DNA of 63,045 bases, filler included, from Reclinomonas americana ATCC 50394 (taxonomy: Eukaryota): the NCBI GenBank assembly GCA_048213135.1. It is 17 parts of 17 records of this genome, joined end to end, with 100 filler letters (N's around TTAATTAATTAA, not from the genome) between each part and the next. Parts side by side here need not be neighbours in the genome. Positions count along the whole stretch, not along the records: positions 47,922 to 49,614 come from AFZH01022521.1; positions 49,715 to 54,254 come from AFZH01022522.1; 15 more parts are not named here. One strand, given 5' to 3'. The stretch's first letter is position 1. Every line of letters starts with the position of its first letter. This document shows, one piece after another, positions 9,710 through 52,740 of this stretch. The notes under the pieces are model-generated. The model had not been told where the DNA came from. It was given only the letters and a program-made list of their open reading frames with translations, and did no database searches. The translations under genes were made by a program, and so were the position numbers.

Positions 9710-12700
9710 ATGCGCTTGCAGGTGCTCGCCACAGAGACACAACGTTGCGTTTGTGTGTGTGTGTGTGTGTGTGGCACTCACTCCCTATATGTGTGTGCTC
9801 CTCTGTGTGTCTGTGCGCGCGCGTGAATGTGAGAGGCAGAGCGTTTGTGTGCGTGGCAGTTGTTTCTTGCTCTCCTGTGCACCCGCTTGTGCCTCCTCGC
9901 TCGTGTCTGTGCATGGAAGTTCGTGTTCCTGCTTGTGTGCGTGTGTGCGCGTGTGTGTCGTTCTCCATTGGCCCTTTGTGATCGGGCGGTTGACTTCATT
10001 CGCGCGCGCACTTGCTCACTCGCTGCCTTCGTTCACAGACCGCGATGTGGTGACATCAGTGGGCTGGTCGGTTGCCGGTGAGCTGCTCACATGTGGCGAC
10101 GACCAAGCGATCTACGTGTGGAGCAAGAATGGAGAGAACGTGCAGGTAATGTGTCCGGTCGCTGGTGACAAGTTGACACACGCACGCATGCACTCACCAA
10201 CGACAACGACGATGATGGGGGTGTGGTTGCTGGTGAGCAGAAAGTGTGCGACTTTGACCGCCATGTGACGGCGCTGGACTGGTATCCGGCAGTGTCGCGC
10301 AAGCAAGGCGGCAATCCAGACGCATTCGCCGTGTCGTGTGCAGACGGTTCGCTTCACCTCTCTCGCTCACACATGCACGAGCCTGACTAAGGGGTGGGAC
10401 TTGTCCGATCCAGGCGCCTTTTGTTTGATGTCGCGCTCGGGGCGTGTGGAAAAAGTGGTGGACGGCGCGCATCGTGGTGCTGTCACGGCGCTCAAGTGGA
10501 ACTACGAAGGCACCGCCCTGGTGACGGCCGGCGAGGACGGCAGCATCAAGGTGTGGTCGCGGAGCGGTGCGCCGCGCTCGACCTTGTCTTCGGCTGGTGA
10601 GTCGTTGTCGTCGACTTGTTCCTTTCCCTCCCCCCCTCTCTCTCTCTCTCTCTACAAGTGCTGACTCGCCCCGTCTNNNNNNNNNNNNNNNNNNNNNNNN
10701 NNNNNNNNNNNNNNNNNNNNTTAATTAATTAANNNNNNNNNNNNNNNNNNNNNNNNNNNNNNNNNNNNNNNNNNNNATCAAGGTGTGGTCGCGGAGCGGT
10801 GCGCCGCGCTCGACCTTGTCTTCGGCTGGTGAGTCGTTGTCGTCGACTTGTTCCTTTCCCTCCCCCCTCCCTCTCTCTCTCTCTCTACAAGTGCTGACTG
10901 CCCCGTCTCTTTCACCATACCAGGTCTCTGTGTGTACAGCATTGCGTGGGCACCCGACAGCGACCACGTGTTGTACACGTCGGGCAAGGACCTGATCATC
11001 AAGCCGCAGCAGCCGTCGTCGAAGCACCTGCAGTGGAAGGCCCATGATGCCACCATTCTGCGCGTCGACTGGAACATTGTGAACAACCGCATTGTCTCTG
11101 CCGGCGAAGACGGTCGCTACAAGGTGATTTTTCGACGCACGCCGCCACACCTCGTCTCCTCGCCTCCCACTCACTCGACTTAACAGGTGTGGGACTCGTA
11201 TGGACGGCCACTGTTTTCCAGCGCACCGTTCGAGTACGCCATCACTTCGGTCAAGTGGTCGCCCGACGGCGAGCTGTTTGCCGTCGGTGCCTTCAACCTC
11301 ATTCGTCTGTGTGACAAGGCCGGGGTTCGTCTTTTCACACACGAGTGTATGTCTCTCTCTTTCCCTCCCTCCGCACCCCTTCGCTCACTCGCCGGCGCTC
11401 CTGCAGTGGTCGTGCTCACGTGAGAGTGTCGAGGCGGGCTCGATATTTGATCTGAGCTGGACTCCCGACTCCACAATGCTGGCGGGCGGCGGCGGCGGTG
11501 GCCAGGTGGTGTTTGCGCAGGTGGTGGATCGACGGCTGGAGTGGAAGAACTATGTGGTCACCCTGCAGGATTCCAACAAACTCTTTGTGCAAGATGTGCT
11601 GAATGAGTTGGTCGAGGACTTGGAGTTCCGCGATCGCATCATTAAGATCTCGTTCGACTTTGGGTACCTGGTGGTGGCCACCAGCACCCAAGTGCTCGTC
11701 TACAGCTCCGACAATTGGCACACGCCGCACATTCTCGACGTGAAGGACTCGGTGACACTGTTGCTGCAAGCAGAGAGGTGTGTGTGCCGACTGTGCATGT
11801 TGTGGTGCTGGCTGGTTGAGAGTGACTGACTTGTTTGTTGTTGCTCGTGCTGCAGAAAATTCCTGATTGTCGACAACATCACCGGCGTGCAGATCTTCTC
11901 GTACGACATGCGACCAGTGTGCAAGGTGGGCTTTTCGGGTCTGCGACCCGACTTCCTCAACGCCCAGTCCATGTCGCTGTCGAACGACGCGGTCGCCATC
12001 ATTGATCGCGCCGAGCCACGCACGGTGCGCATCCTCAGTTCGGTGACAGGCAAACCACTTGGTGGCACCAATGGCGGCACCATCACGCACACCAACGAGG
12101 TGGTGGAGGTGGCGTTGGACTATCACGGCTCGCTCAACAGCCGCAAGGTGGTGTTTATCGATTCAAATCGCGATCTGTACCTGACCAGCGTGGAGGACGT
12201 GCGCGTCATCAAGCTGGCCACCATGGTTGCGTTCCACTCGTTCTCTCTCTATCTCTCTATCTCTCTCTTAAGCACGGCACGTGCAGGTGGATTCGGTGAG
12301 GTGGAACGATCAGACAGACATGCTGGTGGCTCTGGCCGACGGCAAGCTGGTCACGTGGTACTACCCGCAAGTCATCAACATTGACAAGGATTTGCTGTTG
12401 CAGACGCGCTTCGCCAAGGACGCCAGGTGAGCGCTTTTTGTCAAGAGCACATGACTTGCACCCCCAGCAACTCACTCACTCTTTGTCTCGCCCTTTGCGC
12501 GTCGCAGCGAATTTGGCAAGAACGCAACTCTTTTGAGCTTTGTGGGCTCCCGGTGCATGATTCGGCGAGCGGATGGCGCCATGATGGCCGCCGGCGTCTC
12601 ACCGTACCCCTTGATGCTCTACAAGTATGTGGAGCGCAACGAGTGGGAGAACTCGATCCGCTTGTGCCGCTTCGTCAAGGACAACACACTGTGGGCGTGT

Positions 12701-13219
12701 TTGGCCGCCATGGCACTGGAGGCAGTCGACCTGAACACGGCCGAGGTGGCGCTGGCCGCCATTGAGGAGGTCGACAAGTTGCAATTCATTCTCAAGGTCA
12801 AGGACATTCCGTCGGCCGAGGGCCGCAATGCCGAGTTGCTGATGTACCGTCGACGAGTGGACGAGGCCGAGCAGTTGCTCGTGCAGGCCGGCCTCACGTA
12901 CAGGGCCGTCAAGATGCGCATCCGCATGTTCCAGTGGGATCGGTTCGTTTTTATGCTCTTCTCCTCTCTTCTCTGCCTCTCAGTGGCTCACTCGCTTTCG
13001 TTTAAAAGTGCCCTGGACCTCGCTGTCAAGTACCGCGTGCACACCGACACCGTGTTGGCGTACCGACAGCGGCATCTTCTCTCGACACATCGCCACGAAT
13101 CGAATGCTCGCTTCCTGAAGCTGGCCGAGGAGGTGGGCGAGATCAACTGGGAGCAAATCAAGCTCAAGATCAATGCCGACAAGCAAAAGGAGCGGGATCG
13201 AGGGTCACGGGCACACTAA
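9710..13219 (+). CDS. IFT80: Intraflagellar transport protein 80 (WD40), about 11 exons, spans a gap
   Basis: [21 protein letters not shown]...[22 protein letters not shown]...[10 protein letters not shown]...LEFRDRIIK...RLCRFVK...[20 protein letters not shown]. Colinear with IFT80 throughout; all introns GT-AG. Confidence 0.97.
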
Positions 13220-20506: not shown

Positions 20507-23500
20507 CTATTTGGTCCACGCGCTGCTGCATTCGGTCTCGACAATGAGTGGCACCTCAAAGTTCACGCCGTCGACAGCGCCCTCCATGAGGCGCTTGATG
20601 ATGGGCGTGACCTCGTCGAGCTCCTCGTCGGGGACCTCGAACACCAGTTCGTCGTGCACCTGCAACAGCATGCGCGTTCGCAATCTCGGTCGCTGCGACT
20701 CGAGCATGGCGTGCACACGGTTCATCGCAATCTTGGTGATGTCGGCCGACGAGCCCTGAATGGGGGTGTTGATGGCGGCGCGCTCGGCAAATGAGCGAAT
20801 GGCTGGGGTTTGCGAATGAATCTGCGGAATGTGGCATCGTCGTCCAAACTGCGTCACGAGTGCGTTAGCACGTGCGTGTAAGGAAGGAGGCATGCCGGTA
20901 CGGAGTACTCACTAGCGTCTCCANNNNNNNNNNNNNNNNNNNNNNNNNNNNNNNNNNNNNNNNNNNNTTAATTAATTAANNNNNNNNNNNNNNNNNNNNN
21001 NNNNNNNNNNNNNNNNNNNNNNNAAGTGTATCGCGCGCGCAGTACAACCTTCGGTACGAGCCGGAATGTTTTGCAAGTTGGGATCGACCGAGCTCAGTCG
21101 CCCTGCGACGACGCAACTCAGTGCATGCACTTCGCGCATCAGCAGCTGACACACTCGCTTACCAGTGTTGGTGAGTGCATTCTGGAACGTCGTATGAATG
21201 CGCCCAGTGGTGGGGTCGATGCGCACAGAGAGGCCCTTGACGTATGTCGAGTGCAGTTTGGAGAGGCGACGGTGTTCCAGCACCAGTGTCGCCAACTTGT
21301 GACCTGCAACGAATAAAGTATGAGTGTTGACAATCACCGCGGCTTTTTGGCAAATGAACGGCACACGAATACCCTTAGCCTTGAGCTTCTCGAGTACCTC
21401 CGAGTCGGTCTGCCACGTGCCACCGGGCAGGCGCTTGGCAAGGCGGTTGTCGACCTTTTCCACCTGCACGTCAAAAATGATTTCACCGAGCTGTTTTGGC
21501 GAGTTGATCTTGAATTCGCGACCGGCCGCGGCGTAGATGCTCTTGGTCACAATGTCCAATCGGGCGTTGAGATCGGCACCCAGCTTGTCCAGTGCATTCG
21601 AGTCCACCAGCACACCGGTCAGCTCCATGCACTTGAGTGTTTCCACCAACGGCAACTCAATGTCGCTGTAGAATCGCGACCGCGTTGCGTCTTCCACCAT
21701 GCGTGTGGCCAGCAGTTGGTACAAACTGCGCGCACAACTCTGTCAGTACACGGCCCGCCTTCACTCTCGAGACAGGCGTGCTCACCGCAAGTTGTAAAAT
21801 GCACGTTCGCACACAAAACGCGTGGCAATGTCCAGCTCCACGTCCGCAAACGGCATCATTTTGCGCCCGCTGCCCACCATCTGTCACACCTTTGTCAGCA
21901 ACAAGGCAATGCCTTGCTCTGTGAACAGACAAACCTCGCCCTCGGGAGTCACGTCGTGCACGTCGAGCAACTTCTCCACCAGCAGCTGGAGATCGTGTCG
22001 GTGCTTGCCGCAGTCCAGACAGTACGACATGACCATGGTATCATCGTAGGGTTGCACTGCAACACAAAGGCACGCATTCTCAATCGCCCAGTCACATAGT
22101 CACGAATATGTGTGCGCAGCCACCAACCATCCACATTGTAATTGTACAGCGCCTCCAGCTGCTCCTTCATGTCGTGCCCGACCTTGTGAATGGTTGGATC
22201 GGTGAGCACGCGTCGCACGGCATTCCACAGGCGAGTGCCCATATCGCCGGCAGTAGAGTCGGCAGAGGCCGGGTAGGCCGACGGTGACAGATGTGGCACG
22301 TAGCACGCATCGCCGCGGATACTGCACAAGGCCACACCAGCTGCGCGAGAAGGTGAGACGATCCGCACAGACAGAGGCGCGCGCACACACACACACACTC
22401 GCACACACACCCAGCGTCTGTTCGTGCTCGTTGGGGTGCGAGACTTGCGCGTGGATGCTAATCACCTGCGTTCGATAGTGGAGTGAGAAGCAGCAGCGAA
22501 ACCACTCACACACAAGTCAACCTTCGCCCCAGAAAACGCAACACCACCCGGAGCTGCATGCTCTGCAACCCACTCCTCAAAGGCCTCGACGGTACGAATC
22601 GACCGGTAGCGTGCGTTGCCAAACACCGCAGGCACCTCGGCCCACATGGGCAGTGCCATTAGTCGCTGGAAGCGACCGTGCACGCTGTCGTCGGGCTCTG
22701 CTTCCAGTCACGAACACGATCAGAAAGAGACTGTCTAAGATGAAGAGATTGTGCGTGTGTGCGCGCACGACGCAACCGCGATGCTCGGAACGAGACAGCA
22801 CGTGGCCCGTGGTCCCATCGAATCCAATCTTGTCGGCGTCGACGGCTGAGGCCGCAGATGCCAACTGCTGCTGTTGCAGCTGTTGTTGTTGTTGCTGCGT
22901 GAGGAACCATTCGAGCTGATATCGACGGCACACTTGCTCCGCCTGCGCAACACTACACAGTGAGTTGTGCTGCACTGTGCAACGAAGCAACGCGGTCGAC
23001 TGGCGATAAGGGACCTGATCGCCGGGTGTCCACGCCGGCCACGCAAACGACTGCAAGTCAGGGAACATGTGCGGATCGATCGCGTACTCGCCAACACAGC
23101 GCGACAGGTGTGCTGCATGGCTGCGAATGCTGCAATCCCACCAAGACAAATCAGTCGACCAGTCAGTCAGCGAGTTCGCGACCACCTGCCTCCGACGCAA
23201 CAGTTCTCGTGTTTTCCGACTTGCAATGTTTTGCCGCCCAGCCAGCACCGCCTCCATCGATGGGAACTGCTGGAGCAACTCAGCGGCGGCTTTTTTCGAC
23301 AGGCCGAGCACTCCGCGGCCATCTGCAACAGCACGTCAGCGCATACCTTCACTAGAAAGCGCGACAGTGACGAACTTGTCGATCCGTCGCCGGTCAGGCA
23401 AAGCATGTCGCGCACCAACGACGGAGGGACCAGCATCTCGGCCTTCACAGCGGCCTCATCTACGCGCATTGAGATGGTGTGAGGGAGACGCGTTCCGCTG

Positions 23501-32446: not shown

Positions 32447-32546
32447 NNNNNNNNNNNNNNNNNNNNNNNNNNNNNNNNNNNNNNNNNNNNTTAATTAATT
32501 AANNNNNNNNNNNNNNNNNNNNNNNNNNNNNNNNNNNNNNNNNNNN

Positions 32547-33177
32547 GCCAGCCGCCCGACAAATGCTCACCAACTCGCGCTGCTCCTCGTGCGACATGAC
32601 ATACCCGGTGGGGTTATGCGGGCAATTGACGACCACCAATCGCGGAGGAGGATCACTGGCCGCCACCACCTCGCGCAACTGCTGCAAGTCCAATCGCCAC
32701 TCAGGCGCACGCGTCTCCCACCGCGTGACTTGCGCCCCACATGCCTCCGCCACCGCGGTCAGCGACTGGTAGCACGGCCAGTGCACCACGACGCGATCGC
32801 CCGGCGCAATGCACGCTCGCACAAAGGCATAGATGGCCTCCTGCGCGCCCACGTGCACCAGCAGGTGCTGCTCGGGGTCGATGGTGGTGTAGAGTGTGCG
32901 GGCAATGGTGTCGCGGAGGTGTGGATCGCCGGTGGATTCGGCGTAGCCGAGGCGGAGGTCGAGGAAGCGGTCGAGGGTGGAGGAGGAGGAGGTGGGAGAA
33001 GAGGTGGGGGTGAGGGAGAGGAGGTCGCGGATGGAGGTGCTTTCGGCGTCGGAGCAGCAGAGGAGGAGCGGGGTGGTGAATTCGTAGCGGGCGAAGAAGC
33101 TGGGTGGTTGTGAGTAAGCGAGAGGAGGGAGGGAGGGATGAGGAGGAGGCGAACCGTTCGAGTTTGAAGGGCTCCAT
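32547..33177 (-). CDS. PLP-dependent aminotransferase class I/II (capreomycidine synthase/AspAT-like), 3' end lost in gap
   Basis: MEPFKLER|FFARYEF...CSDAES...LGYAESTGDPHLRDTIA...GAQEAIY...WPCYQSL...VVNCPHNPTG; one intron. Confidence 0.9.
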
Positions 33178-33469
33178 GATCGACGACTGATTGGTGTCGG
33201 TGCAATCAGCGCGGGCGGACATCGAAGTGACAGTGATCGCCAGCAAGAAAACTCGTGTGGTATTCTTATGCACTGGGTTGTTGGTGTTGAGAATAAAGAC
33301 CCCTTTCCAAGTTGCATAAACTCTGCCGGCGACGTCGACTTTACAGGCTTAGCAGGGTGGTGTCGATGAGTGGCCAGAGGTCAAAAAAGGGTCAAGGGTC
33401 AAGGGTTGAGGGCACAGAGCCCACAGCCTTACCGCTGGGTGTGAGATACCGAGGCCAACAGGCCACAAT

Positions 33470-41858: not shown

Positions 41859-44428
41859 CACGAGACTGTGCCAATCGACTACGTTGCTCTCGTGATCGAG
41901 AGAAAAGAGAGTTTGAGAGAATAAGTCGGATCCTTTTGTCTGATCTGCATTCGAGAGAGAAAGACAGATCCGCTGAGCCAGACTGTATCTCACACACACA
42001 AGTCGATCATTGTCAGATCAACATTTGAGAGAGAAAGACAGATCCGCTGAGCCAGACTGTATCTCACACACACAAGTCGGATCATTGTAAGATCAGCATT
42101 CGAGAGAGAAAGACATCCGCCGAGCCAGACTCTATTTCTCGCACTCTCTCTCTCTCTCTCTCACTCTCACTCTCTCACACACACTCTACCAGAGGTAGTC
42201 TTCTACGTTAGCACACTTTGTCCTTGTCTTCCACTTCTTCACTGCAAATGTCTCTCTCCTTGCTCCACTTCTCACCGCCCTTGCTGCCTTCCCACACATT
42301 CTCCTCTTCGTCCTCTACCCTTCCGCCTCGCCTATCCGTTTTCGACCCTTCGCCTGCTCTCCTCCCTTCCCTTTCTTACCCCTTCCCCCGTGTAGCGTCC
42401 AGCTCCACCGCGCACACCCCACCCGACCTGGACGCCATCTTCCAAGGCCTGCTGGACGTATTCCGCCGCAGCATCATCTCCACCCACCGCTCCAAGTTCA
42501 CCCAGTTCGCCCTCTTCTACGTGTGCTCCTTCAAGCAGCTGTACACGGATGCCTTCCTCGGGTACCTGATTGACCTGTTCCGGGACACCTCGAATCACGC
42601 CACCTTCCGGCAGGTCTGTGAATTTCACACACTCACTCTCTCCTTGCACCTACGTTGTCTCACCACCCTTTTCTCCACAGACATGCCTGGCGTACCTCAG
42701 CAGCTTTGTCGCGCGCTCGCAATTCATCACCGACAACCTCACGCGCCTCGTGTGCTCCCTGTTGGCGCATGACATTCGCGAGTACATTCAGCAGCACGAT
42801 CATTCGGTGAGCATGCAATCTCTCGTGTTCCTTCCCGTGCTGTTCCTTCCTCTCCTGTTCAATCCTCTCCTGGTCCTTCCGCTCCTGTTCCTTCCTCCCC
42901 TGTTCCTTCGCTCTCCTGCTCCCTCCTTTGCTCTTCCATCCTCTCCTCCTCCTTCCTTTCTCTTCCATCCTTTTCTGTTTATTCATTTCCTTCCTCTCCT
43001 ATTCCATCCTCTCCTATTCCATCCTCTCGTGGTCTTCACTTATCTGTTCCTTCCTGTGCTGTTCCTTCTTTTTCCTGTTTGTTCCTGCTTCGCGCTCTCC
43101 TTATCCTTCCTCTCCTGTTCCACCCTCTCCTCTCTCTCATCTCTTTCCACTCACACTACTGGCGGCACAGGTCATGTACCCCGACGCACAAGCGCACGGT
43201 GTATTCTACTGGCTCTGCCAGGCCCTGTTCTACATTATCTGCTTCAAGCACCGGCGACTGGTCGAGGCGGGCACCGACATGCTGCTCTTCGAGGACCTCA
43301 GATTACAGGCCACGATTGACTGCAAACTGAATCCGCTGAAAGTTGCGTCTCCTCCCCCTTCTCCCTGTCACACAAAGCAGCCCCGAGACTCATTTGTTCT
43401 CCACAATAACAGATGATTCCGTCAACGATTGCCAACGAATTCGCTCGAGTGACGCAGAGATACGGGTGGTGCGATTGCTCATCGCGTCTGGCGGCCAATC
43501 GGTGCGTCTTGTTGTCACTCGACCCCTTCTTTAATCTTTCCCTCCACTCATTTTTTTGTACGCGCACAGGACGGTGTATGTGCCGCCAACCAGCGAATCG
43601 GGCCAGCGCAATGTGCTGGACTCGTTCTTCCCCTTTGATCCGTACCTGTTGGTGCATTCAAGTGTGTACATTAGACCGATATACCAGGACTGGGAGGTGT
43701 TTGAGGACATGTTCGAGACCATGGCGACGCTCGTTGCGTACACACTTTCATGGCGTTGTTTGCCTCTCCTGCCTTCTCCCTTGCGTCCCCCCTTGTGTCG
43801 TCCTTCTTCCACGTTCCGTCCTCTTACACGTTCTTGTCTTCTTTCCGCATTCTCTCTTCCCCTCTTTTGTCTCCCATTTCCGTCTTCCCCCTTCGTCTTC
43901 CCCCCTGCGTCTCCCCCCTTCGTCTTCCCCCCTGCGTCTCCCCCTTGCGTCTTCCCGTCCTCTCTCACTCGTTCTTGTCTTCTTTCCGCATTCTCTCTTC
44001 TCTCTTCCACTCCCATTTCCGTCGTCTTCCCCCTTCATCTTCCCCCTTCATCTTCCCCCTTCCTCTTTCCTCTCCTCCCTTCATCTTCCCCGTTCATCTT
44101 CCCCCTTTGGTCTTCCCCCATTGGTCTTCCCCTTTTGGCTTTCCTCCTTTGGTCTTCCCCCTCCTCCTTCCCCCTTGCTCTTCCCCCTTCATCTTCCCCC
44201 TTCATCTTTCCCCTTCATCTTCCCCCTTCACCTTCTCCCTTTCCCCCCTTCCCCCTTCACCCCCCTTCCCCCTACTTCTCCCCCTTCCGCTCACTTCCCT
44301 TTTCCCCCGCTACAGGAGGAGGGCGCCGACGAGCTGGCCGAATACGTGACCTCGCCTGTGCACTACGAAGCCGCCCAGCAATCCCGCGACGACCACCACG
44401 TACTGTACAGACCATCGGTGGGCCACTC
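39498..44428 (+). CDS. RRN3: RNA polymerase I initiation factor RRN3/TIF-IA, spans a gap, 3' end in gap
   Basis: IISTHRSKFTQFALFYVCS, RQTCLAYLSSFVARSQFI, HGVFYWLCQALFYIICFKH, LNPLK, LDSFFPFDPYLL...IRPIYQDW. Confidence 0.95.
41923..42140. repeat. Intronic minisatellite, about 75-bp unit x3
   Basis: Repeated gagagagaaagacagatccgctgagccagactgtatctcacacacacaagtcg(g)atcattgt. Confidence 0.85.
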
Positions 44429-45561: not shown

Positions 45562-46603
45562 GTCATTGTCCACCTCGCGGCACACACCAACACCAAGACC
45601 GCCGAGGAAGACCCCGACCGCTGCATGCTGGCCAACGAGGCTGGCACTCGCAACCTCGTGCAGTGCCTCGACAGTCACACCAAGTTTCGCGCCTCTCAGT
45701 CTCTCCCTCGCCTCTTCTTTCTCCCCTCTCCATGTCCATCTCCTTCTTCTTCTTTGCTTCTCCTCCTCCTCCTCCTCCTCCTCCTCTTTTCCTCTACTTT
45801 CTCCCTCTCGCCTTCTCCTGTCCACCTCCTTCACCTCCTTTTCCCTCTCTCACCCCACATCAGGTTCATCCTGTTCTCCACCGACTGGGTGTACCGCGGT
45901 GAGGCCTCGCGTGAGGAGCCGTACTTGGAGACGGATGCCACCGAGGCGGAGACTGTGTACGGGCGCTCAAAAGTGGCCGCCGAGCGAGTAGTGCTGGAGG
46001 CGGCGGCGGAGCGAGGCTTCCCGTATGTGATTCTGCGCAGTGCGCTCATCTTTGGTCCACCGGCGGTGTACAGCGGGCAGACGAGTTTCTTTGAGTGGTT
46101 CAACGTGGCGCTGGCCAACGGCAAGACCGTGCAACTGTTCATCGACGAGATCCGCAGTCCGGTGTATGTGCGCGACATTGCGGGCATTGTGATCGCACTG
46201 CTGCACGACGATGCGCACTGGAACCAGGTGTACAACATGGGATATCCTTGCTTGCACGTTGTCTTCTTCGTGTTCTCGTCGTTTACGTTGCGCACTTCCT
46301 TGACTGCGTGAGAGAAATCGCACAGGGCGGGATCTGATCTCGCGTTTTGAATTTGGTCGCCGGCTGGCACTCTCGCGTGGCTACAATTTGGATCTGCTGG
46401 TGCCATCCAAGGCCAGCGATGGTACGTTGCCGCGTGCTGTGCTCCTCCCCCTGGTGGTGGCGAATCATTCACACGCGCACTGCGCAGTATTCAAGGACGG
46501 CAATCGACCGTCCAAACTGGGCATGAATATCGACAAGCTGCTGGCTATCTATCCCAATCTGCGCACCGTGGACGAGGCTCTCGCCGACATGGACGCCAAG
46601 TGA
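45562..46603 (+). CDS. RmlD/MAT2B-like extended SDR (dTDP-4-dehydrorhamnose reductase family), 5' end not seen
   Basis: VIVHLAA..., FSTDWVYRG, catalytic YGRSK, LFIDEIRSPVYVRDIA, YNMGGRDLISRFEFG. Confidence 0.9.
46242..46323 (+). other. U12-type AT-AC intron (82 nt)
   Basis: 5' ATATCCTTG, branch site TTCCTTGAC (46296-46304), 3' AC. Removal restores in-frame YNMG-GRDLISR. Confidence 0.9.
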
Positions 46604-46698: not shown

Positions 46699-47583
46699 TC
46701 ACGCCTCGTCATCGTCGTCGCCGCTGCATTCGGCCGATCCCGCAGCAGCACTGCCGCTTCCTGCACCGGCAGGCAGATCCAGAAACGTCATTTTGGCAGG
46801 CGGCACACGCAGCTGCTGAATCACCGACGCCTCATCCTCCTCGTTCGTCACTCGGTACACTGCGAGCGCAGCGAGGGTCAGTGAATGGGGGGAAACGGGG
46901 TGAAAGTGGATAAAGCGCGTACGCACCCACGGAAAAGCCCTCGGCCACTGTCGGCGCCACAAACTGACGGACGAAGCGCTGCATCGTCTGGACCGACTCC
47001 TCGGTGGGCGGCAGGGTCGGATGGTTCTCTCGCGTCCTTACACGCTCCTCGCACACCGCCTGCGCACGCACACACATTCTGTCAGCTGACACAGACTGCA
47101 AAGAGAGGAGCGTGATTACACACACCACTGGCGTGTCGAGGTGCACAGCGACAACATCGTCGGCCTTGTAATCGCGGGCCAGAGTCACCCACGTCGCCCG
47201 CTGTGCCACATCAAAGTTGACACGATCGACCACAACCGAGCGGTCCTTGGCCAACGCCTGCTTCATGTTTGCCTGCACACAAGAGATGAGATCACGAATC
47301 CAACAAACAGAGCACGCACTCAAAAAAATGCGCCTCACCTCGACCGCACCACGCGAGCCCATGTCGTCCTGGTTCACACTGCACGGGAGAGACATAGTCA
47401 GTCGCTGCACAACCTCGACCAATCATCTTCACAACCCGCTCACCGCACGAGGTTCGGAATCTTGTTGACCAGCAGACGACTAAAGTACGACTTGCCGGAG
47501 CCAGGCAGACCGCAGACCACAATCACGCGCAGCGGGTGCGCGTGCGGGCGTGTCGGCACCTGCACCTTGACGTTGCGGTCGAG
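46699..47583 (-). CDS. P-loop polynucleotide kinase-like domain (AAA_33); probable C-terminus of the gene starting at 50520
   Basis: VIVVCGLPGSGKS, VNQDDMGSR, VVVDRVNFDVAQRATWV, VCEERVRTRENHPTL, PTVAEGF. The first exon starts at a splice acceptor with no ATG. Confidence 0.88.
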
Positions 47584-47743
47584 CTACAAACCACGGAATT
47601 GAGCGACAAAAGGGCAACTTCATCCACACACATATACAAACACACATAGACACACACACACAAACGCACACGTGCAAACACACAAGCACACAAGCACGCA
47701 AACACGCAAACACACACACACACACACACAAACACACAAACAG

Positions 47744-47813
<70 letters not shown>

Positions 47814-47921
47814 CACACTACNNNNNNNNNNNNNNNNNNNNNNNNNNNNNNNNNNNNNNNNNNNNTTAATTAATTAANNNNNNNNNNNNNNNNNNNNNNN
47901 NNNNNNNNNNNNNNNNNNNNN

Positions 47922-49464
47922 CGGAACGCCTGGTTCTCCTCAAAATTGTCGCGCTGCAGGCGCGCCAGTAGCGCATGCAGCTCTCCTGACGGCGGCACCG
48001 GGGCCGGGCCACTGCAGAGCGCCATGAGTTGCAAGAGAAGATAACAACATACAAGGTGTGGTCACACGAAACATCTCGTTCGGGTCGGTGGAGGTGATCA
48101 CGGGCTGAATGCGACCACGATCGTCGCTGATGAATAGCGGCTTCATGGCCAAGTCAAAATCGTACGACACCAGGTGCGGCTCGCGGCGGCCGCACAACTC
48201 AAACGCCACGGCCTGCCACTGTGGCGAGTCAAAGTGCACCGCGCGCAGGTCGGCCGGCAGGTGCGGCGAATCGGCGTAGAACCACGACTCGTGCTCCGCG
48301 CTCACGATGGCCTTGTCGTGCGTTTGGCCGGCTGTCGGACAAGGGAAATGAGAAGATGATCAGTGGCCAACACAAGAGCGAGAAAGAAATGGTGCGACTC
48401 AACGATGCTCGGGCGCTGCGCCGAGTGCCGTCAACACCAGGTCGAAAAACGCGCCAAACTCGCCATTGGTGATGAATGGCGAGCCCTTGCTCTTGGCGCT
48501 GATGCGCCAGCGGCCTGCGCCGTCCGGGTACTTGAACATGAGCAGGTTCATGCCGTTCCACTTGGTGGTGATGAACATTTGCGAGGCGGCGTGGGGGATA
48601 TTCATGAACTGGCGCGAGTCGAAGTTGGCGTAGGGGTACTTGAGCTGAGTAGGGGGAAGGGACAGGAGGGGTTAGGGAGGGGACAAGAATGGCGATGCTC
48701 AATGACAGAGAGGCAAGTAGACAAGCATGAAAGGCGCTTCTCGATTACAAACACGACATACGAGAGCAGAGACACGAGCGACGCGACGAAAAGGACAGCA
48801 ACAAGCTCAATCAAACAGAGAGGAATGACTCCGCTCTCGGCATGATGAGAAAAACGAGCGTGATGGACAGCTCTCTCACACTCTCTTTCTTGCCATTCAC
48901 CTTATGGGTGTCAAACACAGCATACGCGAGGAGAGACAATGGCAAGACAGGCGATGACAGGAGCAAGCTCAATGAAACAGAGAGGAAAGCAGCAAGAGTT
49001 CAACAAGCAAGATGGACGGCACTCTCTCTCGCCGTTCACCTTGTGAGCGCCAAACATGACACACGCAAGTAGATAAGATGGCTAAAACAAAGGACTCTTC
49101 TCTCTCCCTCCCTTCCCCCCCTTCCCCCCGTCCCCTCCCTCATCTCGTACACACCTTGGGCGTTCCAAACAAGACATACGGCGCCGGCAACACGCGATCG
49201 CCCACCTCGTAGATCACCATTGAGCCGCCAAACGCACCCTCCTACACTCCACGTACGCGTCCCCCAATGAGACACTCATACTCGACGAGTAGAAGACAAT
49301 CAAAGAAGCAGAAAACAACAGACCCGCTTGCACATGTACCCGACGACCTGCTCGCCGGGGTGAAACGGATCGACCTTGGAGAACTTCAGCAGCTGCTTGT
49401 CGTTGCAATCAAACAGCTTGCGAACACTGTCACCGAAAAAGAAAATGAATCAATCAATGCACAC

Positions 49465-49498
<34 letters not shown>

Positions 49499-50520
49499 AG
49501 AAGAAGAAGAAGAAGAGAAGAGAAGAAGACGTACGTACGTACGTACGTACGTACGTACGTACGTCCGTACGTACGACGACGACGAACGAACGAACGAACG
49601 GAAAGAAAGAAGAANNNNNNNNNNNNNNNNNNNNNNNNNNNNNNNNNNNNNNNNNNNNTTAATTAATTAANNNNNNNNNNNNNNNNNNNNNNNNNNNNNN
49701 NNNNNNNNNNNNNNACGTAACTAACTAAACAACGTACGTTACGTACGAACCGAACTACGTACGACGAAAACGAAAAACGAAAAGTAAGTAACGTAACAAT
49801 ACAATAGACACACAACACGAGAGAGAGAGAGAGAGAGAGAGAGAAGAAGAAGAAGAAGAAGAAGAAGAAGAAGAAGAAGAAGAAGAAGAGGGGAGAGGAA
49901 GAAGAAGAAGAAGAATGCGAGAAGAATGCGAGTAGAATGCAGGAGAATGGGAGGAGAATGAGAGTTGAGCGGCATGCATTGTGATACGAATTCATGATGC
50001 CCTCTCCCTTTCTCTCTCTCTCTCACACACACTCACACACTGTCTCTCTCCTCTTCACTCCCACTGTGTGTGTGAGAGTGTGAGTGTGTGTGAGTCCCTC
50101 CCTCTCTCTCTCACACACATACTCACACACACTCACACACACAGATTTCCCTCATCACTCTCACTCTGTGTATGCGTGTGTGAGTGTATGTGTGAGTCCC
50201 TCCCTCTCTACTCCTCCCTCTCCTTCGCCCACTCCCTCTCCCTGTGTCTCCCAACTCCCTCACCTCTGCCTGGCCTCTGCGGAGTTGAACGGGTGCACAG
50301 GCACCAGCAACGAAGGCAACCCCGAGGAGGCCTCTCCTCCCGTTGCAGGCGAGTCGGGTCCAATCAGAGGCAACGCATCGGCGGCCGCAGACATCTTCGT
50401 AACACGCGATCGATGAGGAGGTCTCCGTCGATGTTGTGTAAATGCGCGTTGTGTGAGGTGCGAAGTGGGTAAGAGGAGAGAACGCGCGCTCCGCACAAAG
50501 GTGGTGAGAAGTGAGAGCAT
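47922..50520 (-). CDS. RNA ligase-like nucleotidyltransferase domain with a mitochondrial-type presequence; 6 exons seen, runs into gap
   Basis: Phase-consistent splicing: MLSLLTTFVRSARSLL...AEARQS|VRKLFD...DPFHPGEQVVGYMCKR|EGAFGGSMVIY...FGTPK|LKYPY...ITTKWNGMNLLMFKY...SAKSKGSPF...VAFELCGRREPHLVSYD. KxNG resembles motif I and FELxG resembles motif III. Confidence 0.65.
49529..49575. repeat. Palindromic tetranucleotide microsatellite (ACGT)n in an intron
   Basis: acgtacgtacgt... about 9 perfect units, then degenerate. Confidence 0.85.
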
Positions 50521-50759
50521 GCCCGCCGATCGACAGGTTTCACGATGCAACAAAGCTGTCGGTTTCCGGCGAGAGGGTGTTTTTTTACATAAGACCGCGA
50601 GTCGCATGTGCTCCAGAAATGGGCTTCTGTGGAGATGGGGGGGTTGATGGACCGCTGGTTAGTAGAGCGAGTAAGTGCAATCAGGATCAGGATCCAGAAA
50701 TGGCCATATGCATGCATGCAAATGGTGCTGAGGCTAGTTTCTTAACGTGCACGCGACGA

Positions 50760-51061
50760 TCAACAACAATTCATTCACCAACAAACAAGCAAACAGCTGT
50801 CTTGATGACCGTATCCAAAATATCAACACAGACACCAATCTTTAGAGCAGCAGCAAGTTTTCCTGTGTGCTCTCGGAGCTCCGAACAAGTCGAGAACTGC
50901 GATCTTCACCGCATAAGCGTGGTTGAACAGTGGATTTGACGCACTTGCACAGACGCATATTCAGCGATCGTACACGGCACATCGAATTCCGGAAAGTTCA
51001 CGGTTGAACTTGGTCATCAAGACAGCAGTTGCTTGTTTGTTGGTGAATGAATTGTTGTTGA
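50760..51061. mobile_element. MITE-like element (about 300 bp) with about 50-bp terminal inverted repeats
   Basis: Left arm tcaacaacaattcattcaccaacaaacaagcaaacagctgtcttgatgacc and right arm ggtcatcaagacagcagttgcttgtttgttggtgaatgaattgttgttga are near-perfect reverse complements. A second copy lies at about 33.5 kb. No clear TSD. Confidence 0.75.
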
Positions 51062-51246: not shown

Positions 51247-52308
51247 TCAAAAGGAAGCCTCCAAGAAGAGGAGCCGATAGTGAATGCTCTCTGCATCCTC
51301 CACCAAGAAGCAGCGCAGGACAATCTCCACAAGGCAGCGGTCGATCGCACCCTGCATATCCTGCACGGCAAGCATGGCCGAGCGAGCACAGTCGAGCTCC
51401 TGGCGAGCGTCGCCGCACGGCGTGGACCACACCCGCACCGTCCTATCATAGCTGCCACTCGCAATAAACTCACCATGGGGAGCGACGGCGACAGACCGCA
51501 GCCACGCAGAGTGACCTTCCAATAGTCGCACCTGCTGGCCGCTAGACAGCGACCACACGCGCACCGTCATGTCCGAACCGCCACTGATCACATGCCGTCC
51601 ACTGGGAGAGACGGCAATACCATTCACCGTTCTCGTATGTCCCTCCAGTCGCCTCACCTCCTTTCCACTCGCCAGCGACCAAACTCGCACGGTATTGTCG
51701 TAGCTGCCACTCACGACGAGCTCGCCATCGGGTGTGACAGCGACGGAAGACACCGTATCTGCATGTCCCTCCAGCCGTCGCACTTCTTCGCCACTCGCCA
51801 GCGACCACACGCGCACCGTGTTATCACGACTTCCGCTCACAGCATGTTGGCCGTCGGGAGTGACAGCGACGCTCTCAACACCGCGAGTGTGACCCTGCAG
51901 CCGTCGCACCTGCTCACCACTCGCCAGCAACCACACGCGCACCGTGCTGTCGCCAGCTCCGCTCACAACGTGCTCTCCGTCGGGAGTAAGGACGACTGAG
52001 TGCACAGAGTACTCATGTCCAAGGAGACGTCGCACCTCCAGTCCGCTCGCCAGTGACCACACTCGAATCGTTCTGTCATAACTCCCGCTCACCACGTGCT
52101 GACCATCGCGAGTGACAGCGACAGACCACACGCCTCCTGTGTGGCCCTCCAGGCGCTGCACTTCCTGTCCACTTGCCACACACCACACACAGATGGTGTG
52201 ATCCTCGCTGCCGCTCAGAATGTGCTGACCGCTGGGAGAGACAGTGACAGTCAGCACGAATGAGGTATGCCCGTGCAGGCACTTGTTGAAAAGAGGGGTG
52301 GAGGCCAT
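51247..52308 (-). CDS. Intronless WD40 protein with 7 highly similar 42-aa repeats and a short helical C-terminus
   Basis: Repeats of LxGHxxxVxSVAVTPDGxHVVSGSxDxTVRVWSLASGxEVRR; ATG at 52308. Confidence 0.92.
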   Translation of the reverse strand: MASTPLFNKCLHGHTSFVLTVTVSPSGQHILSGSEDHTICVWCVASGQEVQRLEGHTGGVWSVAVTRDGQHVVSGSYDRTIRVWSLASGLEVRRLLGHEYSVHSVVLTPDGEHVVSGAGDSTVRVWLLASGEQVRRLQGHTRGVESVAVTPDGQHAVSGSRDNTVRVWSLASGEEVRRLEGHADTVSSVAVTPDGELVVSGSYDNTVRVWSLASGKEVRRLEGHTRTVNGIAVSPSGRHVISGGSDMTVRVWSLSSGQQVRLLEGHSAWLRSVAVAPHGEFIASGSYDRTVRVWSTPCGDARQELDCARSAMLAVQDMQGAIDRCLVEIVLRCFLVEDAESIHYRLLFLEASF

Positions 52309-52740
52309 GCGCGTGAGAAAGTAGACGGATGAATTATGACGCAGGTCGCGGGACCGCGAAGTCAACATGCAACATGCAGCCTCGCCTTTCGCAGGCCAGC
52401 CCGCGAAGTGAACATCGAAAGAACTGCTGCTGAATGCAAACGAAATAGCAGGATGCATGCGGACTTGTTTTGCTTTCGATTTCCCTTGGCTCTGCTGGCC
52501 TTCTCGAGCCGCTGTTCAGCTTGCGAATTCGGACCACCTGATCTTTTCGGTGCGCGCGAGCGAGAGGGACCACATGCGCAGTAAATCCATGCCGCTGTCG
52601 CTAAGTCACGTGCTGACTGGTCTTGGCTCATGGTTCCTTCCCGTTTCTGGCAATAACAGTGCCACATTTCATTCCTCTTCTCCTCTCCCCTCCGTAAACC
52701 TCCCCCCTTCTCCCCTTCTCCCCTTCCACCCTCTACCCCA

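Follow-up and report, generated by a model that had tools for sequence, protein, structure and literature searches.

Two in-frame start codons bracket a presequence-like leader in an RNA ligase-kinase gene of Reclinomonas americana

The RNA ligase-kinase gene of Reclinomonas americana contains two in-frame ATGs on the minus strand, at 50520 and 50394 of the window (the whole stretch of DNA that was analysed, 63,045 nucleotides long). We slightly favor a main product that starts at ATG 50394, with the 126 nt between the two ATGs acting as 5′ leader (UTR, promoter-proximal sequence or both) of the principal mRNA. Most transcripts would then start between 50520 and 50394, or ATG 50520 would be little used. 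ATG 50394 is the likely main start because coding-like codon usage begins only downstream of it. The original prediction was that the two ATGs may direct the enzyme to both mitochondria and cytosol. The available tests, including codon usage, the score of the reading frame (the worst of three) and the N-termini of homologues (0/58 presequence-like), lean against the leader as an established coding sequence.

The gene has multiple exons on the minus strand and encodes a Trl1/Rnl1-like RNA ligase fused to a PNK-type 5′-kinase; two assembly gaps interrupt it. The coding part of exon 1 (MSAAAD...NSAEARQ, 50264-50394) is followed by a donor, AG|GTGAGG, after 50264, and the alignment to the conserved domain of the family sets in at the final residues of this exon. 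Counted from the 50394 start, the pre-domain extension is ~48 aa, inside the range of the homologues. One assembly-gap linker (49615-49714) lies within intron 1. Exon 2 (VRKLFDC...DPFHPGEQVVGYMCKR, 49324-49426) encodes the N-terminal module that is conserved in the ligase family, and exon 3 is EGAFGGSMVIYEV...LFGTPK (49155-49241). Exon 4 (48404-48644) carries nucleotidyltransferase motif I (KWNG) and SAKSKG, and exon 5 (48049-48331) carries a motif III-like FELCG and EPHLVSYDFDL, with an uncertain 3′ border at a weak GT donor. Exon 6 (..GELHALLARLQRDNFEENQAF, 47922-48011) is truncated by the other linker (47822-47921; 44 N, TTAATTAATTAA and 44 N), where the C-terminal half of the ligase is missing. 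Five kinase exons follow within 46699-47583 (47444-47583, 47339-47378, 47126-47272, 46927-47059 and 46699-46859), which contain the P-loop GLPGSGKS, VNQDDMGSR and DRVNFD and end in a TGA stop codon at 46701-46699. Upstream of ATG 50520, a 726-nt spacer separates the gene from a complete WD40 gene (ending at 51247) and contains a perfect 33-nt inverted repeat (50760-51061, arms 50760-50792 and 51029-51061). Scans of the whole window for tRNA genes and Rfam families gave no match.

We infer that the enzyme is an ATP-dependent RNA ligase of the Trl1/Rnl1 fold fused to a PNK-type 5′-OH kinase. Judging from motifs and homologues, it is predicted to phosphorylate a 5′-OH RNA end and to seal it to a 3′-OH end. 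The KWNG of exon 4 fits motif I (KxxG), and this column reads K-W/F/Y-N-G across the alignment. Downstream are FELCG in exon 5 and, in homologues, EGxVLY and YKIKP, which together we take to be nucleotidyltransferase motifs III-V; the place of the latter two falls in the gap at 47822-47921, and tblastn found no match to them in the window. The structural model of homologue P0007 (pLDDT 93.9), rather than of the window protein itself, is predicted to have the ligase fold, as its top Foldseek matches are Trl1-LIG (9qw7 and 6n67), T4 Rnl1 (2c5u) and an archaeal Rnl (5d1o), with E-values of 2e-7 to 3e-6 and TM-scores of 0.45-0.51. Neighbours in the ESM Atlas are clusters of phage RNA_lig_T4_1 (PF09511) proteins (27/30 matches, score 0.98). 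By sequence, the ligase exons have no Pfam match at E<=1, 18 homologues have no match to RNA_lig_T4_1 (PF09511) at E<=0.01, and the PDB contains no sequence match for the ligase part, profile search included. The kinase exons contain a P-loop of the form GxxGxGK(S/T), a downstream Asp-containing motif and DRxN, and align with homologues whose kinase matches 9drz and 9d8a (1.8e-28 and 2e-27) and PNKP (1.8e-11). Against Pfam AAA_33, whose gathering cut-off of 27 is exceeded by 12 of 18 homologues, single kinase exons reach 21.8 and 24.4 bits.

The best matches to the exons are metagenome proteins of ~760 aa with a metallophosphoesterase-ligase-kinase architecture (P0081, P0077, P0028, P0015 and others), about 38-68% identical per exon. 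These uncharacterised proteins, annotated as 'predicted kinase/phosphohydrolase', have their two modules, ligase and kinase, arranged as in the window gene, but they also have an N-terminal calcineurin-like phosphoesterase (~260 aa, upstream of the ligase) that the window gene lacks. Within the family, some relatives carry a metallophosphoesterase or CPD domain. A hidden exon for either domain was rejected, as tblastn with ten homologues gave no match anywhere in the window. The representative protein search gave 65 matches at E<=1e-3, 2 at E<=1e-10 and none at E<=1e-30, all of them distant. The profile search gave 96 proteins, none from Reclinomonas americana, a scan of metagenomes yielded no more than two short matches (L001 and L002), and the exon 4 homologue search found no close relative.

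The enzyme resembles several known systems. It shares with fungal Trl1 LIG-KIN (PDB 9r3w, 6n67 and 9qw7) the order of an adenylyltransferase-type ligase followed by a P-loop 5′-OH kinase, and the homologue model matches Trl1-LIG with a Foldseek E-value of 2e-7 and a TM-score of about 0.5. It differs from Trl1 in having no CPD, in a ligase identity of only 11-14% (structural alignments of the homologue model) and in the distinct conserved N-terminal module of its family (DPFNP...GSLxIT...GTPKL). For the kinase of the family, the Mucorales structures 9drz/9d8a are matches at 1e-28 to 1e-31; Mucorales have a stand-alone RNA ligase and an RNA 5′-OH kinase (PMC11571804, PMC10946426). T4 Rnl1 (PDB 2c5u and 5tt6) has the same ligase fold class and is likewise paired with a PNK-family kinase, T4 Pnk, but the T4 enzymes are separate and Pnk has a 3′-phosphatase, in contrast to the fused, phosphatase-free window gene. 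The plant tRNA ligase is a trifunctional ligase-kinase-CPD enzyme of a different sequence family. A limited literature search (papers on Trl1, Dictyostelium and RNA ligases, and on Mucorales) found no published description of this ligase-kinase family.

The two in-frame ATGs were confirmed on the minus strand, and the peptide of the original prediction is correct: ATG 50520-50518 opens a 42-residue leader, MLSLLTTFVRSARSLLLPTSHLTQRAFTQHRRRPPHRSRVTK, without D or E and with eight R (R8 L7 T6 S5 P3 H3 F2 V2 A2 Q2 M1 K1), and the next in-frame ATG is at 50394-50392 (MSAAAD...). The first acidic residue of the long form is at position 48. There is no ATG in any frame between 50520 and 50394, the most downstream start possible in exon 1. 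ATG 50520 has G at -3 (gcgggcATGc) and ATG 50394 has A at -3 (acgaagATGt), with AG immediately before the latter. With its fair context and no intervening ATG, ATG 50520 would be used if it is on the mRNA. A third in-frame ATG, which the original prediction did not mention, is found at 50605-50607 (gagcacATGc, C at -3), and a one-codon uORF (ATG TAA, 50590-50585) lies downstream of it. The first in-frame stop upstream of all three ATGs is at 50659-50661, so that the frame is open from 50658 through 50607, 50520 and 50394. We note that an A-run, TGTAAAAAAAC, is present 60-70 nt before ATG 50520, at ~50588-50578; it could serve as a TATA-like element, with a start site upstream of 50520. Openness of the frame was rejected as coding evidence, because none of the three minus-strand frames has a stop within the leader (open stretches 50260-50658, 50364-50741 and 50123-50539) and 57% of the sequences obtained by dinucleotide shuffling of the leader contain no stop.

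The R-3 cleavage motif of MPP-type presequences is R-x-(F/Y/L)|(S/A/T). The peptide is presequence-like, as had been predicted from its composition: the N-terminus is basic, acid-free and rich in R/S/L/A/T, an amphipathic segment gives a maximal 11-residue hydrophobic moment of 0.69 (100 degrees, Eisenberg scale, in-house script), and RAF|T at leader residues 25-28 fits the R-3 motif. The six frames of the window contain 750 stop-free 42-mers starting with M; of these, 83 are acid-free and 21 (2.8%) are acid-free with at least 7 R/K. We also defined a composite resembling a mitochondrial targeting peptide by post-hoc criteria (no acidic residue among the first 30, three or more R/K, a hydrophobic moment of 0.6 or higher, S+T+A+L of 15 or more). 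The leader passes this composite, which is passed by 3/750 ORF starts of the window. Of 20,000 composition-matched shuffles of the leader, 11,363 were stop-free; 7.8% of these were acid-free, 1.2% passed the post-hoc composite, and 0.5% had both the composite and the R-3 motif. A C/T-rich leader that contains CG would, if translated in an open frame, give an acid-free peptide rich in R/S/L/T/P/H, which may largely explain the presequence look; the shuffles show that the C/T-rich composition explains it only in part.

To assess codon usage, we built a codon model on 12 stretches with Pfam matches (conserved domains; 1,531 codons) from 8 other genes in the window. In the predicted frame the leader scores -0.385 bit per codon, lower than in either of the other two, and its GC3 is 0.48. 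Coding windows of 42 codons (n=154) have log-odds of 0.407 ± 0.160 (minimum 0.057) and a GC3 of 0.75 ± 0.09 (minimum 0.55), and none of the 154 is as low as the leader; stop-free off-frame windows (n=109) have log-odds of -0.315 ± 0.165. On a synonymous-only score the leader (50395-50520) reaches -0.285, versus 0.338 ± 0.131 for the same peptide back-translated with coding usage, and 0/20,000 of these simulations were as low. Introns and spacer of the locus (n=50) give -0.262 ± 0.256 on this score and a GC3 of 0.50. The leader as a whole is thus indistinguishable from local non-coding DNA, and in GC3, frame preference and synonymous score the inter-ATG segment does not behave as coding sequence.

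Starting at ATG 50394, frame 0 outscores the other two (0.016 versus -0.46 and -0.37), and GC3 (0.70) and the synonymous score (0.124) are compatible with coding (P=0.11). GC3 climbs to 0.87 at the end of exon 1, and the other exons of the gene have values of 0.73-0.88. The controls included the acidic C-tail of the same gene, which is non-conserved and coding-like (GC3 0.65, score +0.26), and a membrane-anchor protein with a GC3 of 0.70-0.82 directly from its start codon. Pseudo-leaders do occur in the window, since an open, in-frame stretch rich in S/P/R/L upstream of an aminotransferase domain has a GC3 of only 0.40-0.50. The non-coding signal of the leader comes mainly from its last 20 codons (GC3 0.25, score -0.55); codons 1-22 have a GC3 of 0.68 and a score of -0.03, and the best GC3 change-point is 50334, not exactly 50394.

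The N-termini of homologues were compared using 58 sequences that start with M and have no large N-terminal domain, all of them distant (at most ~60% identity over short cores). The presequence composite was passed by none of the 58, and the first 30 residues were acid-free in 2. Strongly basic N-terminal extensions, with 7-10 R/K among residues 1-30, were found in several homologues, for example P0003, P0004, P0046, P0062, P0063 and P0014.

Several observations speak against a purely untranslated leader: only 1.2% of shuffles and 3/750 ORF starts pass the composite, albeit by post-hoc criteria; the N-terminus is amphipathic, RAF|T is present and ATG 50520 has a fair context with G at -3; and codons 1-22 have a high GC3, the change-point lies at 50334 and the codon model derives from conserved domains. 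These observations leave some room for dual targeting, by which two transcription starts or leaky scanning would produce a minor long isoform from 50520 with a cleavable matrix presequence and a nucleo-cytosolic short isoform from 50394, a possibility that we consider rather unlikely. Upstream alternative starts are a common route to mitochondrial isoforms, as the original prediction held and as PMC11653698 describes, and the gene has the configuration of such systems (e.g. yeast Crs1), with two in-frame ATGs, none between them, and a basic, acid-free, amphipathic peptide added by the upstream one. The window gene differs from them in that the inter-ATG codon usage is non-coding and the leader is found in 0/58 homologues. 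There is also a precedent for the idea among RNA ligases, because the heal-and-seal tRNA ligase of plants is reported in organelles as well as in the nucleus and cytosol, with a chloroplastic isoform on record (PMC5895719 and PMC10485636, citing Englert et al. 2007). Presequence features beyond composition, together with RAF|T, the imperfect contexts of both starts and the GC3 of codons 1-22 fit dual targeting. The whole leader nevertheless resembles local non-coding DNA, its frame scores worst of three, the composite is post hoc and 0/58 homologues are presequence-like, though none of the 58 is a close relative. Non-coding usage would count for less against an isoform that is seldom translated, as a minor isoform need not be codon-adapted and would escape codon selection, which reconciles dual targeting with the codon results. 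Entry of a minor, N-terminally extended Trl1-like heal-and-seal ligase-kinase isoform into the mitochondria of this flagellated protist, via the upstream ATG or an upstream transcription start, is put forward tentatively.

It is improbable that translation starts solely or mainly at ATG 50520 and that every molecule carries the leader, either as a presequence of an essentially organellar enzyme or as a tail that serves nuclear localisation or RNA binding through the basic tract HRRRPPHRSRVTK. No other ATG comes between the mini-uORF and ATG 50520, which has G at -3, and the basic K/R/G-rich N-termini of several homologues would suit such a tail, but an always-translated segment should share the codon bias of the gene, and the leader does not (GC3 0.48, no simulation as low); the basic tract lies within its most non-coding-like part (GC3 0.25). 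We give very little weight to a different gene structure, namely a start at ATG 50607 that adds 29 residues, or an intronic leader with an upstream exon spliced to the AG directly before ATG 50394. The open frame from 50658, the position of that AG and the ~260-aa metallophosphoesterase domain upstream of the ligase in the closest homologues would agree with it. The window, however, has no metallophosphoesterase-like or CPD-like coding sequence by tblastn with the ten homologues, the next upstream feature is the complete WD40 gene, the context of ATG 50607 shows C at -3, and the stretch 50521-50658 is itself non-coding-like (GC3 0.52, score -0.16).

For diplonemid mitochondria, an RtcB-type ligase has been proposed in the mitoproteome paper (PMC12699882), and a diplonemid-like origin or mitochondrial ligase link was dropped because that proposal concerns RtcB and not the present family. 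If the minor mitochondrial isoform is real, it would imply repair of 5′-OH/3′-OH RNA ends or fragment joining in the organelle by a 5′-phosphate ligase pathway, which would differ from that RtcB-type proposal and from the editing ligases of kinetoplastids. An ATP-dependent ligase-kinase in a protist mitochondrion would then be a new example and not a new principle, because precedents exist for the targeting device as well as for tRNA-ligase isoforms in organelles. If the leader is untranslated, as we slightly favor, it would be a caution for GC-rich genomes with C/T-rich leaders, where upstream in-frame ATGs readily yield presequence-like peptides, and inter-ATG codon usage offers a cheap discriminator. 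In either case, the family itself, an uncharacterised ligase without a Pfam match fused to a PNK kinase, merits biochemical study.

The ligase-kinase gene on the minus strand of this eukaryotic scaffold (GC of the window ~55%) was read from the strand with its borders fixed, and 46699-50520 forms one multi-exon gene. It contains two of the 16 gap linkers of the window (each 100 nt, 44 N + TTAATTAATTAA + 44 N), at 47822-47921 and 49615-49714. Exon 1 ends at 50264 with the donor AG|GTGAGG. Exons 2 (49426-49324), 3 (49241-49155), 4 (48644-48404), and 5 (48331 to ~48049) match, position by position, a protein family that phmmer identified (alignment A1). The gap at 47822-47921 cuts exon 6 (48011-47922) short and leaves the ligase domain without approximately its C-terminal half (residues ~463-589 of homologue P0081 are unmatched in the window). 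Five kinase exons follow, from 47583 to the stop codon at 46701-46699. The residues that end exon 1 (..AEARQ) align with the beginning of the family's conserved domain, which indicates that exon 1 is part of the gene and that the start codon lies within it. We note that the intron between exons 3 and 4 contains a direct repeat (48794-48825 and 48956-48987, 162 nt apart, 91% identity) and, by eye, the end of exon 3 with its donor (..aag|gtgaa..) in two degenerate copies.

Pfam matches identify neighboring genes for IFT80 (11128-13216, plus strand), a family-A DNA polymerase (20975-21742, minus), RRN3 (42212-43413, plus), and a seven-bladed WD40 protein (51250-52458, minus). The presence of IFT80 indicates that the organism builds cilia or flagella. 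No tRNA genes or Rfam families were found in the window by the respective scans. A convergent plus-strand ORF (46304-46603) ends less than 100 nt from the ligase-kinase stop codon, so the two 3′ UTRs necessarily touch or overlap, a sign of a compact genome. Between the WD40 and ligase-kinase genes, the spacer holds a perfect 33-nt inverted repeat (arms 50760-50792 and 51029-51061, 236 nt between), perhaps a hairpin or a MITE-like element.

The kinase exons contain GLPGSGKS, VNQDDMGSR, and DRVNFD, and two of them, taken singly, reach 21.8 and 24.4 bits for AAA_33, just below the cut-off of 27. Homologue P0023 matches the structures 9drz and 9d8a of Mucorales tRNA-splicing 5′-OH kinases (PMC11571804) at 1.8e-28 and 2e-27, and the alignment profile matches them at 2.2e-31 and 6.6e-29. 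The homologues' kinase domains match T4 Pnk, C. thermocellum Pnkp, and mammalian PNKP more weakly. For the ligase part, neither Pfam (searched with window exons and homologues) nor PDB sequences (searched with a homologue and the profile) gave a match. Its motifs are KWNG and FELCG in the window, with EGxVLY and YKIKP additionally in homologues; these presumably include motifs III-V. For the ligase-only homologue P0007, an AlphaFold model (pLDDT 93.9) has as best Foldseek matches Trl1 ligase domains (9qw7, 6n67, 6n0t, 9r3w), T4 Rnl1 (2c5u), and archaeal Rnl (5d1o), with E values of 2e-7 to 3e-6, TM scores of 0.45-0.51, and 11-14% identity. In the ESM Atlas, this ligase adjoins phage RNA_lig_T4_1 clusters (27 of 30 matches, score 0.98). 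The gene is a member of an uncharacterised family in which a ligase of Trl1/Rnl1 fold, lacking Pfam and PDB sequence matches, is fused to a PNK-type kinase.

The phmmer search gave 65 family matches at E≤1e-3, 2 at E≤1e-10, and none at E≤1e-30, and the profile search gave 96 proteins at E≤1e-5. Named members, annotated as 'hypothetical protein' or 'predicted kinase', come from dictyostelids, Balamuthia, Willaertia, and protist transcriptomes, and the best matches of the window exons are ~760-aa metallophosphoesterase-ligase-kinase proteins from metagenomes. An N-terminal metallophosphoesterase is present in P0015, P0028, and many ~760-aa proteins, and homologue P0065 has a CPD-like 2H domain (22.6 bits, cut-off 23). 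These domains in relatives indicate that the family is a module for RNA repair or splicing of the heal-and-seal type. In the window itself, coding sequence for a metallophosphoesterase or CPD domain was found nowhere. Metagenome contig L001 carries at 1352-1396 a stretch of 15 residues that is 87% identical to exon 4 around SAKSKG, and is possibly another family member.

The original prediction proposed that two in-frame ATGs, at 50520 and 50394 (MSAAAD), give mitochondrial and cytosolic isoforms, and the sequence agrees with both ATGs and the 42-residue leader peptide between them (8 R, 7 L, 6 T, 5 S, no D/E). An additional in-frame ATG at 50607 had been missed, and the frame is open from an upstream stop at 50661-50659. 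A mini-uORF (ATG-TAA) lies at 50590, and one of the out-of-frame ATGs at 50707-50717 starts an ORF of 117 codons that overlaps the two starts; productive transcripts would therefore, by the scanning model, begin downstream of ~50705. There is no ATG in any frame between 50520 and 50394, whose contexts are gcgggcATGc and acgaagATGt, respectively. The leader is open in all three minus-strand frames, and 57% of its dinucleotide shuffles are stop-free, so the open frame itself is no evidence.

The prediction that the leader resembles a mitochondrial presequence holds in part. The window contains, over its six frames, 750 stop-free 42-mers that start with M; 83 of these have no D/E, 21 (2.8%) also have at least 7 R/K, and 3 satisfy a composite defined post hoc (first 30 residues acid-free, at least 3 R/K, hydrophobic moment at least 0.6, S+T+A+L at least 15). 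C is the commonest base of the leader (47 C, 31 T, 26 A, 22 G), and of 11,363 stop-free sequences among 20,000 shuffles, 7.8% are acid-free, 1.2% satisfy the composite, and 0.5% also contain R-x-(F/Y/L)-(S/A/T). The peptide has a maximum hydrophobic moment of 0.69 and RAF|T at residues 25-28, which we take to be an R-3 motif. Much of the presequence look is thus due to composition, but not all of it, and after the post-hoc discount the peptide features favor a presequence by roughly one order of magnitude at most.

Codon usage was scored with a table of 1,531 codons from 8 other genes of this one window (12 stretches with Pfam matches). The leader gave -0.385 bit/codon in the proposed frame (-0.174 and -0.107 in the other two) with a GC at third codon positions (GC3) of 0.48, and none of 154 coding 42-codon windows was as low (0.407 ± 0.160, minimum 0.057; GC3 0.75 ± 0.09, minimum 0.55). 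Off-frame stop-free windows (n=109) gave -0.315 ± 0.165. A synonymous-choice score, which takes amino-acid composition out of the comparison, was -0.285 for the leader, and back-translation of its peptide with coding usage gave 0.338 ± 0.131 (0 of 20,000 simulations as low). On this score, stop-free windows from the introns and upstream spacer of this locus (n=50) gave -0.262 ± 0.256, with GC3 0.50. After ATG 50394, frame 0 is best (GC3 0.70, synonymous score 0.124, P=0.11 under coding usage), with GC3 up to 0.87 toward the end of exon 1. The acidic C-tail of the ligase-kinase (GC3 0.65, score +0.26) and a membrane-anchor protein (GC3 0.70-0.82 starting at its start codon) indicate that the measure is valid on non-conserved sequence and at true starts. 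A second pseudo-leader, 33140-33380 (minus strand, in ORF 32502-33380), is open and in-frame with an ATG and encodes an S/P/R/L-rich, acid-poor peptide before an aminotransferase domain; its GC3 is 0.40-0.50, then sharply 0.78-0.93, and it is probably intron or UTR. The non-coding signal comes mainly from the last 20 leader codons (GC3 0.25, score -0.55); codons 1-22 have GC3 0.68 and score -0.03, and the best change-point is 50334, not 50394.

Homologues add little weight to the start-site question. Of 95 family members that start with M and have motif I, 58 are without a large N-terminal domain; none of these satisfies the presequence composite, and two (one truncated, one G/R/K-rich) are acid-free in the first 30 residues. 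A smaller set of 24 homologues agreed with this. The N-termini of several homologues are strongly basic and NLS-like or RGG-like, and the HRRRPPHRSRVTK tract of the leader could be a tail of this kind. All homologues are distant (the best ones share ~38-68% identity per exon), and phmmer, profile, exon-4 homologue, and metagenome searches found no close relative or protein from the organism itself.

Taken together, we lean slightly toward a main start at ATG 50394, in which case the leader would be 5′ UTR. Codon usage disfavors the leader in the main product at least as strongly as the peptide features favor a presequence, and a main start at 50520 is accordingly improbable. Codon usage weighs less against true dual targeting with the long isoform as a minor product, as a low-translation isoform would not be expected to show codon adaptation; this reading is possible, though rather unlikely. 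Other gene structures are very improbable. The proposed device itself has precedents: pairs of mitochondrial and cytosolic isoforms arise most commonly from upstream alternative starts and alternative transcription starts (PMC11653698), and for plant tRNA ligase a chloroplastic isoform is established (PMC5895719, citing Englert 2007). Dual targeting of the ligase-kinase, if true, would therefore be a further case of an already known kind.
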